A stretch of 64,000 nucleotides of DNA, taken from a virus. Where the stretch lies: the IMG/VR virus record IMGVR_UViG_3300005805_000042. One strand, 5' to 3'. The position numbers were made by a program, and so were the translations under genes. The notes beneath the pieces are model-generated. The model made no database searches and had not been told where the DNA came from. It saw only the letters and a program-made list of their open reading frames with translations. Position 1 is the stretch's first letter. Each line of letters begins with the position of its first letter. This document shows positions 9,031 through 61,192 of this stretch, piece by piece.

Positions 9031-9191
9031 CTGATGTTTGTCAATTATAGAAAATCAATTTCATATTGTCAAATCGTTCACCTTGAAAGAGTCGAATTTC
9101 CGACATTTTTTATCTGAGTTAAAAGTGTTTAGTAAACTTCTTTTTGTTACAATAAACCTCATTAGTTTATTGAACAATTTTTAGTTTATTG

Positions 9192-9263
9192 TGACCCCGA
9201 GGCGATTCGAACGCCCGACTCGTGTGTTAAGACACACTGCTCTACCATCTGAGCTACGGGGTC
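9192..9263 (-). tRNA. tRNA-Lys(CTT)-like with a 6-nt anticodon loop
   Basis: Perfect acceptor GACCCCG/CGGGGTC and good D and T arms; GTGTG-TCTTAA-CACAC. Confidence 0.7.
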
Positions 9264-9346: not shown

Positions 9347-9576
9347 TTAACAAAGTATAACCAGGATTCTGTATTTAATCTATCATTAGTCTATTTGCCC
9401 CCACCTTACCCGACCAGCTCACCGTCGTGGGTTGTTTTGGGTTGCATCCTCGGTGGTAATGACGATATAAGGATGTGGACTTATAACTGACCATTATAAG
9501 TTTGTTCCCTTATATCTCCCACCTTAAGCTGTGATGTCCTGAGTTTCCTCTCCGTAGAGCGACAGAACTTTGTTAA
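9347..9576 (-). ncRNA. rnpB: compact RNase P RNA (about 230 nt)
   Basis: P1 TTAACAAAGT/ACTTTGTTAA; P2 TCTGTC/GATAGA; CR-I GAGGAAACTCAGG; CR-IV-like GCAA and CAAATAG; CR-V ACAGAATCCTGGTTAT complementary to CR-I for P4. Confidence 0.88.
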
Positions 9577-9579
9577 CTA

Positions 9580-10089
9580 TTACAAATCCAACATTTGGCG
9601 ATGTGTGATATTTTTATTACCCTTAATTTCCTTTTTTCGATTCATCAGTTTTCTAACGGTCCACCAATCTTTCGATAAAAAAACCACATAACCTAAAAGT
9701 TTTCCCGAGTCATACGGCATTTGAGGGTCTTTCACCACAGAAATATAATAGGGAAAAAGATAACCTGAGTTTTTTTCACTAATCATGACTTTGTGAAAAA
9801 CTATCATATCAGAATTCCAACGTTCGAAATGAACATCAGGTTTTTCGTGTTTATTGATATACTCAGTAATGAGACCGTCTTTGATTATCAACTCAGAATC
9901 CCCATCTAAAAAGGTGTAGAATTCAGCAATTCCATATATGATAAGAAGGGTAATAACAAAAAAGAGAGTAAGAAGAATTATTGTCATAGTAAAAAATTTA
10001 AGAATTGTTTTCGTTGTTTTCAGGTTTAGGTTCAGGTTCTTCGGGTTTCGGTGGAACATTCCACATTTCATCCCAAAAGGTGTATTCAC
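9580..10089 (-). CDS. hypothetical protein with N-terminal TM segment
   Basis: ORF; likely start at MTIILLTL. Confidence 0.55.
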   Translation of the reverse strand: MNTPFGMKCGMFHRNPKNLNLNLKTTKTILKFFTMTIILLTLFFVITLLIIYGIAEFYTFLDGDSELIIKDGLITEYINKHEKPDVHFERWNSDMIVFHKVMISEKNSGYLFPYYISVVKDPQMPYDSGKLLGYVVFLSKDWWTVRKLMNRKKEIKGNKNITHRQMLDL

Positions 10090-12908: not shown

Positions 12909-14372
12909 TTATTCTTCATTGTACAAATAATAATCTCCATAACCTCTGTATCCATCGGGTAATTTGTATAAAAATTTTTGTTCCCAAAGGGTTTCGACAT
13001 CTTTTTCAAAGTAAGGATACATTATAAATGAAGGTAACTTAGGTTCTTTAGATAAGATTACCTCTAAATTTAAATGTTGTACATTACCCCACTTTAAGAA
13101 AAGAATCTGACTGCTTACGACATGATAATCATAAGAGGCAAAATGATTTTCGTCCAATCTTTGATATCCTGTCAATGTTTCTTTTATGGGATTATCATTT
13201 TTATCGATTGCATTATGTAAAAAATTGTGCCAATAATCATTAATTGAAACTTTTTCTGTGTGGTATTTCACCGCCCTAAAAAAATAATCCCTTTCCTGAT
13301 ATCCAATCCCACAAAATCTTTCATCCCATAGACCAATCCTACGGATGGCATTTGGAGTGTAACTAACAAAATTATCGCCAGAACCACAAGTTACTAAATC
13401 GTATTGTTCGTGTAATTTGATTGTTTTATTTATAAAATGATTTGAAAAAATTGTATCATCTTGACAAGTAATTAAAATATCACAATGAGGGTCATTTAAA
13501 TCTGTAAATCCATTGAGGATTGCTTGATTCCAATTCCGAGATAAATGTCCCGTTGAAAAATCAGGTCTGAGTTCGTTATTTAAAATGGTGACTTTATCGA
13601 CGTAGTTTTCATTAAGAACAAAATTTGAGTGATTGTTGATTATAAAAATTTGTAAATTAGATAATTCTTGTTGATTAACATTAAAAAAAATAGAGTCTAA
13701 ACATTCGTTTAACAATACAGGGTTGTTATAGGTTACAATAAAAATTTTGATTTTTTTCTCCCTAACAAAATGAATATTAACTTCATTACCTAAGTGGTCG
13801 TTGTTAGTGACAGCAACTATTTTGAATCCATTATCAATTAAAAATTGTTGTGTCTCTTCTAATGTATTTTGACCATAGTAAAGAATATTTGGTTTTGCTG
13901 CGGCTTCAACCATTCCTTCTTTGACAATAGAAAGAAAATTCCCCATTCCCTTCAAGACTTTCAAATCAAAACCTTGAGTATCGACATGTAAAAAATCGAT
14001 TTTGGGTATTTTATTTTTTTCAATGTAATTATCTAATCTTATCACCTTAACTTCCTCTTGGTTTGTAACCACAAAATCTTCACGGCCATCCCAATCAGTT
14101 TGAGATTTATCGGAAAATTGTAAAATTGAACTACAACCCCAATCCGCTTGACCTGCAACATTTAAAAGCGTGAATTTTTCTTCATCACCAACAGCAAAAG
14201 GGGTGTAGTGAAAATTTTTAAGGTGTGAATATGTTTTTCTTATATGTTCGAAAAAACGAGAGGTAGGTTCAAACGCATGTAAATGAGTAGTCGAGTTGTC
14301 TTTGACTTCTTGGATGAAATTTGAACAATCGTTGGCGCCGACATCAAAAATAATTTTTTTTGGTGGTAACAT
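12909..14372 (-). CDS. FkbM-family methyltransferase fused to a GT-A (GT2-like) glycosyltransferase
   Basis: IFDVGAN, AFEP and LHVDTQGFD (FkbM); then IFIVTYNN, CQDD and WDERFCG (GT2-like). Confidence 0.85.
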   Translation of the reverse strand: MLPPKKIIFDVGANDCSNFIQEVKDNSTTHLHAFEPTSRFFEHIRKTYSHLKNFHYTPFAVGDEEKFTLLNVAGQADWGCSSILQFSDKSQTDWDGREDFVVTNQEEVKVIRLDNYIEKNKIPKIDFLHVDTQGFDLKVLKGMGNFLSIVKEGMVEAAAKPNILYYGQNTLEETQQFLIDNGFKIVAVTNNDHLGNEVNIHFVREKKIKIFIVTYNNPVLLNECLDSIFFNVNQQELSNLQIFIINNHSNFVLNENYVDKVTILNNELRPDFSTGHLSRNWNQAILNGFTDLNDPHCDILITCQDDTIFSNHFINKTIKLHEQYDLVTCGSGDNFVSYTPNAIRRIGLWDERFCGIGYQERDYFFRAVKYHTEKVSINDYWHNFLHNAIDKNDNPIKETLTGYQRLDENHFASYDYHVVSSQILFLKWGNVQHLNLEVILSKEPKLPSFIMYPYFEKDVETLWEQKFLYKLPDGYRGYGDYYLYNEE

Positions 14373-17260: not shown

Positions 17261-17521
17261 ATGAATACAAATAACCCACTCAGTCATCAAGATTTGATGA
17301 ACGCCTCACTTTTGTTTTCCAAAGCACTCTCCTTAATTTTAGATGACAAACAAGGTATTGTTGTTGATATTGTCCCCGATTCGGGTGTTGACATGGGAGA
17401 AAACACAACCAAAGTTGTTATTTACCGTTTGGAAAATCAAATTCACGTGCAAAATTTAGAAATGGATATTGTTGAAGGAACTATAGTAGCTCTTAGTGAT
17501 AAAGATAAAACTGAAAATTAA
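17261..17521 (+). CDS. hypothetical protein
   Basis: 86 aa ORF. Confidence 0.6.
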   Translation: MNTNNPLSHQDLMNASLLFSKALSLILDDKQGIVVDIVPDSGVDMGENTTKVVIYRLENQIHVQNLEMDIVEGTIVALSDKDKTEN

Positions 17522-17528
17522 TAAAAAT

Positions 17529-19196
17529 ATGACAGTCTTAGGTTTCTCCGTTGGGCACGATAAAGGTGCTGTAATAATCAAAAATGGTCAAGTAATTGTT
17601 GGAATAACACAAGAAAGACTCACAAGAAGAAAACATGATGGAGCATTCACAGGTGGTGCAATTCCTGTGGAGTCTATTATGTATTGTCTTTCCGTATTGG
17701 ATATTACCGTAGATGATTTAGACCTCATTGTTTACAGTTCAACTGAATTGGTCGATAACACATACGAACTTTTCAATAAAATCTTCCAAGTACCAAAAAA
17801 GAAACTTGTGTTCATGCCTCATCATTTGGCTCACGCATATTCTTCTTTCTTTTCTTCAGGTTTCGATGAAGCTGCAGTTATTGTCGCAGATGCATCGGGT
17901 TCAATTTTAAATCATAAAACTAAACTTGGTGAATGGTATCCCGAAAAATCACATGAAGGACTCAATGAGGGTGAAGATTGGACTGAAGGTATTTCTTTGT
18001 ATCATTTTACCAGAAGTGGTCATAGTGAAGTTTATAAGAAATGGATAAAATATCCCGTACCCCTTGAAAGTAATGATGGAGTGTCGTTAGGCACTATGTA
18101 TTCACAGGGATGTTTACAATTGATATATGAACCCAACAGTAATGTTTGGCCGGCAGGTAAACTTATGGGATTGGCTTCATATGCAAATTCAGAATTTGTA
18201 AAGAATTTCCCTGAATACATAAAATATGAAAACGATGACATTCATATACCAAACGGTGGGATTCTTCCACATATTACTTGGAGAAATGATTTTCAAACTA
18301 AAGCTAATGTTGCAGGGGTTTATCAAAGAGAACAAGAAAAGGCATCCCTGATATTGGCAGATATGATTAAAAAACGCACAAACTCAAATAATGTTTGTAC
18401 TGCAGGGGGTTCTTTTTTGAATTGTAATTCTAATGAAATTATCATAAATTCAGGACTATTCGAAAATACATTTTTTGTTCCTCCAGCTGATGACAGTGGT
18501 ATCCCCCTTGGATGTGCGTGGTACGCATATCAACAAGTTGCTGAAATTCAACAAACATTTCCATTGTGGCCCTACTTTGGTAAAAAGTATTCAAATAGAG
18601 ATGTTGAAGAAGCTACGAGTAAATTTCCAAACCTCCGAGTAGAATATTGGGATAATTTTGATGATATTGTTGAAACCATAACTGACAGACTTGTTGAAAA
18701 TAAAGTTATCGGATGGTTTCAAGGAGGTTCTGAAATTGGACCTAGAGCTTTGGGAAATCGTTCAATTATTGCGTCACCCACATCAAAATGGATGAAAGAC
18801 AGAGTTAACCATGACCATAAACATAGAGAATGGTATCGTCCCTTTGCACCTGCAGTAATTTTTGATTTACAAAAAGAAATATTTCAAACTGACTACTTTT
18901 CTCCATTTATGTTGGTTACTGCAACTGTGTCAGATGAATGGAAAGAAAGAATTCCTGCGGTAGTCCATATCGATGGGTCCGCAAGATTTCAATCTGTCAC
19001 ACCAAAAAGTAATGAAAAGTTTTTTAAACTTATAAATAAATTTTACGAAAAAACTGGAATCCCTGTTTTGTTGAACACTAGCTACAATGGTGGTCACGAA
19101 CCAATGATTGAAACACCCTTTGATGCTATTAAATCTTTTTTAGATTGTAATTTAGATTTTCTAATAGCTGAAAATTATATTATTAGTAAAAATTAA
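17529..19196 (+). CDS. carbamoyltransferase (NodU/CmcH/TobZ family)
   Basis: GHDKGA, QERLTRRKH, HHLAHAYS, AGKLMGLA, GGSFLNC, DDSG, GPRALGNRS, WYRPFAP and LLNTS motifs. Confidence 0.93.
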   Translation: MTVLGFSVGHDKGAVIIKNGQVIVGITQERLTRRKHDGAFTGGAIPVESIMYCLSVLDITVDDLDLIVYSSTELVDNTYELFNKIFQVPKKKLVFMPHHLAHAYSSFFSSGFDEAAVIVADASGSILNHKTKLGEWYPEKSHEGLNEGEDWTEGISLYHFTRSGHSEVYKKWIKYPVPLESNDGVSLGTMYSQGCLQLIYEPNSNVWPAGKLMGLASYANSEFVKNFPEYIKYENDDIHIPNGGILPHITWRNDFQTKANVAGVYQREQEKASLILADMIKKRTNSNNVCTAGGSFLNCNSNEIIINSGLFENTFFVPPADDSGIPLGCAWYAYQQVAEIQQTFPLWPYFGKKYSNRDVEEATSKFPNLRVEYWDNFDDIVETITDRLVENKVIGWFQGGSEIGPRALGNRSIIASPTSKWMKDRVNHDHKHREWYRPFAPAVIFDLQKEIFQTDYFSPFMLVTATVSDEWKERIPAVVHIDGSARFQSVTPKSNEKFFKLINKFYEKTGIPVLLNTSYNGGHEPMIETPFDAIKSFLDCNLDFLIAENYIISKN

Positions 19197-19203
19197 TTTT
19201 ATT

Positions 19204-20796
19204 ATGAGTGTAATCTATGGACTTTACGCAGCAGGACATAGTCCATCAACAACTTTGATTGTTGACGGTGAAATAATACATGCTGTAGAAGAAGAGAGAA
19301 TCAAACGAATTAAATCGGGAGAAGACTATGGTGCGTACCCCGATTTATCACTAAAGGCTGTCGAAGATAGAACTAATATAAAACTCAAAGATGCTGATTA
19401 TGTAGTTTTTGCTGAGCCCGCACCACCGGTATATGCTAGGAGACTAACTAATGATAATTATTCTAAAGTGTCTCACCACCGTGCACATAATACCGCAGCT
19501 TATTTTACAAGTGGAATGGAAGGAAAAGTACTTTCAATTTCATACGATGGTGGTGGAGAATCTTCTTTTATGAGAGTATATGCATGTGAGGACGGTAAGA
19601 TGAATGAAGTTCACCGATTATCGGGAACTAACTCTGGAAGTCTTTCACAACTTTGGGGATTTATAACAAATTGGATGATGGGTCGTAATTCAAATTGTAG
19701 GTTTCAATGGATAATGTGTAAGGATGAAGGTAAGGTCATGGGAATGGCACCTGATGGTTATTACGATGAAAGAATTCAAAAAATTCTACATAGTATCCTA
19801 TCATATAATGATTTAAAATTTTATCCTTCGGGAACTGACCAAAAAACTAAGTTTGTTATGGAACGATTACTCGAAGAAGGTTTTTTTGACACTCTTAAAA
19901 AACGAGAAGTTTTCAGTTTCAATTTACAATACTTTACTGAGGAATTGATGTTGAGATTTATCGACGACCTACACAAGAAAATGCCCGACTACAAGAAACT
20001 TTGTTTTTCAGGTGGTCTTTTTGCGAATGTTAAACTGAATCAAAAAATAAATGAATTACCGTGGGTTGAAGAAATATACATTCTTCCTCCAATGGGTGAT
20101 GAAGGACTTTCTTTAGGTGCTGCAATTCATAAAGCAGTTGAATTAGGTGAAATTACAAAACCAATAAAACTTAAAAATGTTTATTTTGGTTTCGATTATT
20201 CAGATGAAGAAGTTATAAATTTGGCAACAAAACATGACTTTTTAGTAAAAAAATATATTGTTGATGAAATTGCGACGGATTTAAATAAAGGTTTGATTAT
20301 TGGATGGTTTCAAGGTAAAATGGAACTTGGACCACGTTCCTTGGGTGCGAGGAGTATTTTGGTAAGACCTACAGATTACAATACCCACGCAGAGTTAAAT
20401 CGAAGATTGAAAAGATATGATACAATGCCTTTTGCACCAATGATAATGGGTGAGTTTTTTGAAACGGTTTTCCCGACCGCAAAATCCAAGTATGCCGCTC
20501 AGTTTATGACTTTAACATTTCCAACCCATGAACCATGGATTTATAAAATTCCCGCAGTAATTCAGAAATCGGATAAAACTGCCAGACCTCAGGTAGTGGA
20601 AAAAGAAAATCTTCCCAAAGTTTGGGAACTTATGAATTCGTACTATGAACTCTCAGGTATCCCATTACTACTTAACACCTCATTCAATGCTCATAACGAA
20701 CCCATTATTGAGCACCCCGAAAATGCTTTTGTTCACCTTAAAAATAAAGTGATTGATAAATTAGTTATTGGAGATTATGTATACGAAAATAAATAA
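19204..20796 (+). CDS. second carbamoyltransferase (NodU/CmcH family)
   Basis: EEERIKRIK, HHRAH, DGGG, EGKVMGMA, GGLFANVKLN, GPRSLGARS and LLNTSFNAH motifs. Confidence 0.93.
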   Translation: MSVIYGLYAAGHSPSTTLIVDGEIIHAVEEERIKRIKSGEDYGAYPDLSLKAVEDRTNIKLKDADYVVFAEPAPPVYARRLTNDNYSKVSHHRAHNTAAYFTSGMEGKVLSISYDGGGESSFMRVYACEDGKMNEVHRLSGTNSGSLSQLWGFITNWMMGRNSNCRFQWIMCKDEGKVMGMAPDGYYDERIQKILHSILSYNDLKFYPSGTDQKTKFVMERLLEEGFFDTLKKREVFSFNLQYFTEELMLRFIDDLHKKMPDYKKLCFSGGLFANVKLNQKINELPWVEEIYILPPMGDEGLSLGAAIHKAVELGEITKPIKLKNVYFGFDYSDEEVINLATKHDFLVKKYIVDEIATDLNKGLIIGWFQGKMELGPRSLGARSILVRPTDYNTHAELNRRLKRYDTMPFAPMIMGEFFETVFPTAKSKYAAQFMTLTFPTHEPWIYKIPAVIQKSDKTARPQVVEKENLPKVWELMNSYYELSGIPLLLNTSFNAHNEPIIEHPENAFVHLKNKVIDKLVIGDYVYENK

Positions 20797-60455: not shown

Positions 60456-60842
60456 TTAACTCTGACCACTAACAATAAATCCGAAGGATTCATTTTTGAA
60501 TAGCCACATATTAATAAAATACCCATCAATATAACATTCCAAATACCCAATAACACTCCTGTTGAATTTATTCATTTTTGATTCATTACCTTCCTCTTTC
60601 AAAAAATTCATATAAGGTTTGTTTGCTTTGAAAACAATACACTTAGATGTGGTATCTGATTCCATTAGGTCCATTACCCTATACATTTTACGGGGGGTTA
60701 AAGAAAATTCATTCCACCTTATCCCTTCGTCATCGAAAAAAGTGGAGTCAGTACCAGCAAACATTATGTGTAAAGCCTGTTCTTTGTTTTGGGAAAAAAG
60801 TGAAATGGATAAAACCATTAATAGTATAAAAATGTTTTTCAT
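60456..60842 (-). CDS. secreted hypothetical protein
   Basis: Signal peptide MKNIFILLMVLSISLFS. Confidence 0.55.
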   Translation of the reverse strand: MKNIFILLMVLSISLFSQNKEQALHIMFAGTDSTFFDDEGIRWNEFSLTPRKMYRVMDLMESDTTSKCIVFKANKPYMNFLKEEGNESKMNKFNRSVIGYLECYIDGYFINMWLFKNESFGFIVSGQS

Positions 60843-61192
60843 AAGTTTAAATGTTTTCTGTAATTTTTTAATAATGAATTAATGTTATCTCTCCCGACAG
60901 GATTGGCAGATTGAATATCCCAATCAGGTACATCAATTTCACCATTTTCCATGCAGTAATTAACCAACCATTTAGCGGCATCATAACCCGTTCCATTTTT
61001 ATCCTCACCCAAGTCATGGTCAAAGAAAATCTTATCAGGTAAACCAAACTCATTGATGTAATCAACAAACATCGGAAATTCTTTTACCCAAATAAGAGTA
61101 TCCACAGATTTGTCTAACTCAGAAATATAATGGTCATACCAAACGCTTTGGTTTGGGTCACGAAGGTCGTCTAACCAAAGATAAGTTTTCAT
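60839..61192 (-). CDS. cyclic-phosphate-processing receiver-like domain (cREC)
   Basis: WLDDLR, FFDHDLGE, TGYDAAKWL and SANPVG. Confidence 0.8.
   Translation of the reverse strand: MKTYLWLDDLRDPNQSVWYDHYISELDKSVDTLIWVKEFPMFVDYINEFGLPDKIFFDHDLGEDKNGTGYDAAKWLVNYCMENGEIDVPDWDIQSANPVGRDNINSLLKNYRKHLNL

Follow-up and report, generated by a model that had tools for sequence, protein, structure and literature searches.

RNase P RNA is a universal ribozyme, which trims new tRNAs. The bacterial type A RNAs are distinguished from type B by the helices P15-P16-P17 with the GGU of L15, and by P6, which is formed between J5/7 and L17. In type A enzymes, the L15 GGU pairs with the 3' CCA of the tRNA. To our knowledge, bacterial-type RNase P RNAs have been thought always to have a specificity domain (S-domain) that reads the tRNA elbow, and we know of natural S-domain loss only from a few archaea and organelles. 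Reduced organellar RNAs, such as those of the ascomycete mitochondrial Rpm1 type, are bacterial-derived and have lost most of the peripheral and S-domain helices; the Rpm1-type RNAs also lose much of the periphery of the catalytic domain (C-domain), namely P15-P17, and rely on large dedicated proteins.

In a 2026 study of the archaeal type T RNA, a lone T-loop (UAAAA) between P7 and P9 is modelled as lying against the tRNA elbow (PMC13462272). The isolated E. coli C-domain is able to cleave whether or not C5 is present; it needs P6-type pairing, and P18 is dispensable for it once the S-domain is gone (PMC5839562). As for viruses, the camelpox virus RNA is of the eukaryotic type and has only a modest effect on RNase P (PMC3001073), and Rfam scans of megaphages return tRNAs and tmRNA only (PMC8172020). 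No report of a phage-encoded RNase P RNA was found in the literature, a 2024 RNase P review included.

The window analysed here is the whole stretch of 64,000 nucleotides of viral DNA. A 230-nt RNase P RNA of an uncultured large phage is encoded at 9347-9576 on the minus strand of the window, where it heads the phage's own tRNA gene cluster. The alignment of this RNA with RF00010, the Rfam model of bacterial type A, covers model positions 1-367 and scores 35.9 bits, with E = 8.9e-10 in a local search and E = 1.3e-07 in a search of the whole window. Bacterial type A was the best Rfam model for the RNA, and 9347-9576 was the sole RF00010 copy in a permissive scan of the whole window. The gathering cut-off of RF00010 is 100 bits, and an Rfam scan of the window at gathering thresholds reported no RNase P. 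Since the score lies below this cut-off, such genes stay unannotated in routine annotation.

An earlier note on this DNA had described a compact RNase P RNA from a phage, with its catalytic domain intact, and this is borne out by the end-to-end alignment with RF00010 and by covariation; all of the elements listed in the note are present on the minus strand where it had placed them. As far as the comparison of sequences can tell, the window RNA is a true RNase P RNA that is encoded by a phage and derives from bacterial type A. The features are as follows, all on the minus strand, in window coordinates.

9347..9576, minus strand: whole mini RNase P RNA, from the 5' end of P1 to the 3' end of P1; aligned to RF00010 end to end
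9567..9576, minus strand: 5' strand of P1, UUAACAAAGU; 10-bp closing helix with 9347-9356 (1-10 with 221-230 in the RNA numbering)
9561..9566, minus strand: 5' strand of P2, UCUGUC; pairs with GAUAGA at 9379-9384 (11-16 with 193-198 in the RNA numbering)
9550..9559, minus strand: P3, cut to 3 bp and a UACG tetraloop
9538..9550, minus strand: CR-I and the 5' strand of P4, GAGGAAACUCAGG; bulged U at 9542 (U35)
9533..9536, minus strand: 5' strand of P5, CAUC; pairs with GAUG at 9445-9448 (41-44 with 129-132 in the RNA numbering)
9527..9531, minus strand: 5' strand of the P6 pseudoknot, CAGCU, in J5/7; pairs with AGCUG at 9415-9419 in the P17 loop (46-50 with 158-162 in the RNA numbering)
9519..9523, minus strand: 5' strand of P7, GGUGG; pairs with CCACC at 9452-9456 (54-58 with 121-125 in the RNA numbering)
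9457..9518, minus strand: S-domain remnant, 62 nt; head, hairpin and bulge inside P7
9399..9444, minus strand: J5/15 (CAA), P15, P16 and P17, including the 3' side of L15, AAGGUG at 9402-9407, which carries the GGU
9385..9394, minus strand: CR-IV / J18/2, UAGACUAAUG; UAGAnnAAUG motif conserved across members
9358..9372, minus strand: CR-V and the 3' strand of P4, ACAGAAUCCUGGUUA; invariant core, pairs with CR-I
9191..9263, minus strand: first downstream tRNA, the presumed substrate, 84 nt after P1

Conservation of the catalytic domain

Homologues were searched for in viral contigs using a degenerate pattern of CR-I to CR-V at compact spacing. The three spacing classes of the pattern matched 8, 11 and 5 viral contigs, respectively, all of which are clear homologues except two (L023 and L030), which were rejected as chance matches without the other core features. 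The family consists of about 20 homologues of 201-285 nt in uncultured viral contigs.

The structure was tested by counting pairs in MAFFT alignments, where partners slid along the sequence and 500 shuffles served as the controls. In the alignment from P2 to P4, which contains 9 sequences, 90.1% of the cells pair, compared with 37-47% when the partners are slid, and both sides change in 27 of the 45 pairs. In the alignment from CR-I to CR-V, which contains 16 sequences, 94.5% pair, compared with 27-45% in the shifted controls. None of the 500 shuffles reached the observed pairing in either test. Two-sided changes are seen in 25-27 pairs in the alignments, the pseudoknots P4 and P6 included, and compensatory changes are seen in P2, P5, P6, P7 and P15-P17; CR-I, CR-IV and CR-V are invariant or nearly so in the aligned members. 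The structure of the window RNA is maintained far more strictly than chance would give.

P1 is present in nearly all members as a helix of 8-17 bp with unrelated sequences. All six pairs of P2 covary and are 100% paired in the 9 sequences, and P3 carries GAAA or CACG loops, or is extended to a longer stem, in the other members. P4 is formed from a CR-I of the GAGGAAAGUCC type and a CR-V of the ACAGAANCCGGCUUA type with the bulged U, as is required of type A, and comprises seven pairs (32-34 and 36-39 with 212-218 in the RNA numbering); it is 100% paired in the 16 sequences, where the bulged U is invariant. In the same 16 sequences, P5 is 100% paired and all four of its pairs covary, and the P6 pseudoknot, whose retention is an addition to the elements listed in the earlier note, is 91% paired with three of its five pairs covarying. 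P7 has 5 bp in 16/16 members, of which four pairs covary, and is 97.5% paired. P15, P16 and P17 are 100%, 96% and 90% paired, respectively, in the 16 sequences, every one of them covarying. The AGGU of L15 is nearly invariant, and the GCAA of J5/15 is invariant or nearly so. P18 is absent, as only about 4 nt (GCAA) lie between the 3' side of P15 and CR-IV.

The third pair of P4, which is located beside the bulge, is flipped; it is C-G in 15 of the 16 family members and G-C in 24/24 sampled cellular RNAs. The cellular comparison covered 41 genomes from the phylum of a Ferruginibacter MAG, which is the likely host phylum, and in 39 of these a full-size type A RNA was present, with lengths of 318-551 nt and scores of 175-307 bits. 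Because the flipped P4 pair is specific to the family and absent from all of the sampled cellular RNAs, the compact family is judged to be an old separate lineage and not a recent host capture.

The same pair bears on the reading that the RNA is what is left of a captured host rnpB that has lost its function and is decaying, for which the low Rfam score and the large deletions compared with cellular RNAs would speak. However, such a remnant would not be expected to keep its structure by compensatory changes in phages with helices that have little sequence in common, nor to have identical deletion boundaries in all members, and the flipped pair indicates an old lineage under selection. The decaying remnant is refuted by the covariation, and its probability is considered to be negligible.

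The closest record is a 117-kb IMG/VR contig, which has a copy 97% identical to the window RNA. An exact 25-mer scan of the viral contigs with the window RNA gave no match, and none was obtained among GenBank phages by blastn, for which the window RNA and two other members were the queries. The compact pattern found no true member in a prokaryote genome collection of 185,579 species; its 9 matches there fall in coding-like sequence, lack the other core features and were rejected as due to chance. An unannotated divergent member of 205 nt is present in the published 642-kb phage LR756502.1 at about 614640-614840 (L098:1464-1668, plus strand). This member has a variant CR-I/CR-V pair, GAGGAAGUUCAAC ... 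ACAGAAAGUUGACUAC, and is scored best by the archaeal RNase P model, at 32.4 bits; RNase P goes unmentioned in the paper reporting the LR756502.1 genomes. RF00010 and the core pattern gave nothing in Flavobacterium phage immuto, LR745206, LR756502 and Lak-A2, and these negatives are weak because both searches missed the LR756502 member.

Reduction of the specificity domain

The S-domain remnant of the window RNA consists of a head, G-A-G, at 9516-9518, a 19-bp hairpin with a 5x5 internal loop at 9464-9516, and a bulge, GUCAUUA, at 9457-9463, and it folds as one hairpin with z = −5.9. P8-P14 and CR-II/CR-III were not found inside P7, which contains no ACAGARA or UGAAA module. The missing double T-loop (CR-II/CR-III) had been remarked on in the earlier note, and there is indeed none between the strands of P7.

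The inner length enclosed by P7 ranges from 17 to 102 nt across the 16 aligned members. The head follows R-A-G, of which the A and the G are invariant (16/16). The distal element, which is conserved in neither sequence nor loop, forms one hairpin, with 2-23 bp, in 14 of the 16 members; the exceptions are the branched element of L029 and the 9-nt element of L025, which is predicted to be unfolded. The bulge on the 3' side is 6-7 nt long, adjoins P7 and ends in U-U-R-U-A, where the last A is present in 16/16 members. The consensus of the 7-nt form is GUUAUUA, as in the copy that is 97% identical to the window RNA (G001) and in the distant member L098, and the bulge of the window RNA is one base off this consensus. 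Since the layout of P7 plus bulge matches the type T model, some elbow contact may survive in part through the bulge beside P7, as in type T.

A member of 285 nt (L027:3617-3901, plus strand) has a larger region inside P5/P7 with UUGAAAG and GUGAAAC motifs. This member may be an intermediate that retains part of the S-domain.

The S-domain could also be supplied in trans, in a two-piece RNase P, by an RNA of about 200 nt at 7822-8028 on the minus strand. This RNA reads ACAGAAG, a hairpin and UGAAAGG, in the manner of CR-II, P12 and CR-III, and the motif occurs once in the window where 0.05 would be expected; bimolecular ribozymes of an S-domain and a C-domain can be assembled in the laboratory (PMC6783828). 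However, the ACAGA pairs with a UCUGU located about 90 nt downstream in 23 distinct homologues, where the helix is 91% paired and swaps G:C to U:A in 6 sequences and A:U to U:A in 1. In addition, an RNase P core is present in the same fetched locus for only 3 of 57 motif matches, and no Rfam RNase P signal was obtained at 7822-8028. The trans-acting S-domain in this RNA was rejected, because the ACAGA is a strand of a covarying helix and not an unpaired T-loop, and a two-piece enzyme is regarded as very improbable.

Genomic context and probable function

Among 20 members, 17 lie within 2 kb of tRNA genes, and 111/111 such tRNAs are on the same strand as the member; a tRNA is located no more than 11 nt from P1 in 12 loci. 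In the window, the gene stands at the head of an island on the minus strand that contains tRNAs, tRNA-like RNAs and two closed RNAs, in an array that runs to 5916. An ORF at 9580-10089 ends 4 nt before P1, and a sigma-70 promoter scan upstream of the RNase P RNA gene on the minus strand found none; therefore, co-transcription or a non-sigma-70 promoter is likely.

In the 72-nt tRNA at 9191-9263 (minus strand), the anticodon stem GUGUG/CACAC closes a 6-nt loop, UCUUAA, to which ARAGORN assigned no anticodon. This tRNA could be a suppressor-type or non-decoding tRNA. Two further RNAs at 7690-7817 and 8030-8127 (minus strand) are tRNA-shaped, and their acceptor and T arms are canonical; a 69-nt insert takes the place of the anticodon region in one, and the D-loop of the other contains a 30-nt insert. 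A closed multi-helix RNA at 8222-8400 (minus strand), GGUUGGUAGUA ... UACUACCAAC, lies between an ORF and tRNA-Leu(UAG) and has no Rfam match. The closed RNA at 7822-8028 is the full-length form of Rfam freshwater-1, whose match of 62 nt lies inside it, and this full-length form occurs at 55 viral loci, in nearly all of which it sits immediately 3' of a tRNA. Besides the covarying long-range ACAGA/UCUGU helix, the freshwater-1 RNA has a 4-bp hairpin that covaries and whose loop, GAUUAGCA, is invariant; its UGAAAG is invariant as well.

A canonical T-loop (GUUCGAAUC or a close variant) is present in 9/9 neighbouring tRNAs and tRNA-like RNAs, and their oddities are located in the anticodon and D regions. 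The earlier note had suggested a match between the loss of the S-domain and neighbours with odd elbows, which is not supported by these nine canonical T-loops. For the same reason, the co-evolution logic known from elbow-less mitochondrial tRNAs (PMC4919913) is inapplicable. CCA is encoded in only one of the nine neighbouring tRNAs (pre-tRNA-Met), so that the conserved GGU of L15 may be less important than has been supposed.

The thymidylate synthase of the phage is nearest to those of Flavobacterium phages, huge uncultured phages and Prevotella Lak phages; a host from the Bacteroidota is suggested by this. RnpA (PF00825) was found neither in the 40 ORFs of the window, which is part of a genome, nor in five related phage records that are 18-77% complete, and the host protein RnpA is therefore the likely partner of the RNA.

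Elsewhere in the window, two proteins have domains associated with RNA repair. One is a cREC_REC protein (cyclic-phosphate processing receiver, an RNA-repair-type domain) at 60839-61192 (minus strand, E 5e-20), and the other is a HAD_SAK_2 protein (the HAD domain of 'Swiss Army Knife' RNA repair proteins) at 959-1549 (minus strand, E 6e-20); the phage may also repair tRNAs. A fusion of an FkbM methyltransferase and a GT2 glycosyltransferase at 12909-14372 (minus strand) and two tandem carbamoyltransferases at 17496-20796 (plus strand) belong to a large set of glycan-modification genes of the phage.

The window RNA is probably an active ribozyme derived from type A, which would act with host RnpA on phage pre-tRNAs through its catalytic domain; we give this reading a probability of roughly 0.75. 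The RNA would be transcribed together with the phage tRNA cluster and would bind host RnpA through the kept surface of P2-P4, CR-IV and CR-V. The 5' leaders would be removed from the phage pre-tRNAs and tRNA-like RNAs using the contacts of the catalytic domain only, which are those between the leader and the protein, between the N-1 residue and the A of J5/15, with the acceptor stem, and between the 3' CCA and L15. A residual contact with the elbow, like that modelled for type T, might be made through the bulge beside P7. The phage would probably benefit by maturing its tRNAs without relying on how much P RNA the host supplies. P6 is kept and P18 is dropped in the phage RNA, and these are the elements found to be needed and dispensable, respectively, in PMC5839562. 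Against this reading stand the Rfam score, which is well below the cut-off, the single encoded CCA among the nine neighbouring tRNAs, and the flipped pair beside the P4 bulge, which may affect the metal-binding site; a partner protein encoded by the phage is also conceivable, given the incomplete phage records.

The retained protein-binding surface of P2-P4, CR-IV and CR-V could serve a non-catalytic decoy, which would titrate host RnpA or disturb host RNase P and thereby skew tRNA maturation, and an RNase P-like RNA of camelpox virus, which shows no clear activity, has been considered as a possible decoy (PMC3001073). However, a decoy needs no bulged U, J5/15 A, L15 GGU, P6 or P15-P17, all of which are conserved with covariation, and the placement inside phage tRNA arrays argues for processing over inhibition. 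Because conservation reaches past the protein-binding surface to the catalytic positions and those of substrate contact, catalysis is preferred, and the decoy is considered improbable.

If the RNA is catalytic, its substrates may extend beyond tRNAs. Without an S-domain, the distance from the acceptor to the elbow would not be measured, and any end-paired helix with a 5' leader might be cleaved, so that the tRNA-scaffolded and closed multi-helix RNAs of the island would be released besides the tRNAs. Such an enzyme without a ruler would suit the island, where two closed multi-helix RNAs, as well as two tRNA-like RNAs that carry large inserts, stand between the tRNAs. The mini RNA, itself end-paired, could be a further substrate, since it abuts tRNAs in 12 loci. 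The C-domain alone also cleaves substrates of the hairpin type (PMC5839562). Against this, the canonical T-loops of all the neighbouring tRNA-like RNAs mean that nothing forces the loss of elbow reading, and the closed RNAs have no CCA-like tail. An altered substrate range is possible, and cleavage broadened to any end-paired helix is rather unlikely.

Implications and comparison with known systems

A wider, tentative proposal is that these phages independently arrived at the type T solution, in which a catalytic domain with a P7 of constant length would offer one short bulge as a minimal elbow contact, or would make none. Such an RNase P without a ruler would work with host RnpA and mature all of the end-paired modules of the island, namely the tRNAs, the tRNA-scaffolded RNAs, the closed multi-helix RNAs and the RNase P RNA itself. 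This proposal is possible but doubtful. If it were true, the RNA would be the first virus-encoded catalytic RNase P, and the family would be a natural experiment on the share of the S-domain that is required for tRNA recognition. That viruses can encode RNase P RNA lengthens the list of translation-related phage genes, and the sufficiency of the C-domain in the laboratory would gain a natural counterpart. Standard annotation systematically overlooks these genes, as the Rfam gathering thresholds fail. For ribozyme engineering, the family provides a compact scaffold of natural origin, and it allows the molecular-ruler model of tRNA recognition to be tested directly.

The phage RNA resembles type A RNAs (RF00010; E. 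coli M1 RNA/rnpB and T. maritima P RNA) in P1-P5, P6, P15-P17 and the GGU of L15, and also in CR-I, CR-IV, CR-V and the bulged U of P4, all of which align and covary. It differs from them in its length of 230 nt versus 318-551 nt, in lacking P8-P14, CR-II/CR-III and P18, in its P3 of 3 bp, in the flipped pair beside the P4 bulge and in being encoded in a phage tRNA array.

The engineered E. coli 'Eco CP RPR' (PMC5839562) is likewise a catalytic domain without an S-domain, in which P6-type pairing is needed and P18 is dispensable. However, it was made by laboratory deletions and has a reduced efficiency, whereas the phage RNA is natural, selected and widespread, and keeps P7, the bulge and the hairpin. 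Compared with the organellar Rpm1-type RNAs, the phage RNA retains the full type A C-domain. The camelpox virus RNA is a virus-encoded relative of RNase P, as is the phage RNA, but the two are unrelated in lineage and context.

The earlier note had compared the reduction with that of the Pyrobaculum type T RNAs, and this comparison is supported, as in both cases the S-domain is a single stem from P7 and CR-II is lost. The phage RNA also has a short conserved bulge between P7 and the distal stem, at the site of the type T T-loop; the bulge, G-U-U-A-U-(U)-A, is likened to UAAAA by its position and is known from sequence alone. The archaeal type T RNA works with Rpp29, Rpp30, Pop5 and L7Ae, whereas the phage RNA is of the bacterial type and belongs to a bacterial virus, for which RnpA is the only partner available. 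As far as the data go, the likeness between the phage and type T RNAs would be a convergent reduction rather than the result of common descent.
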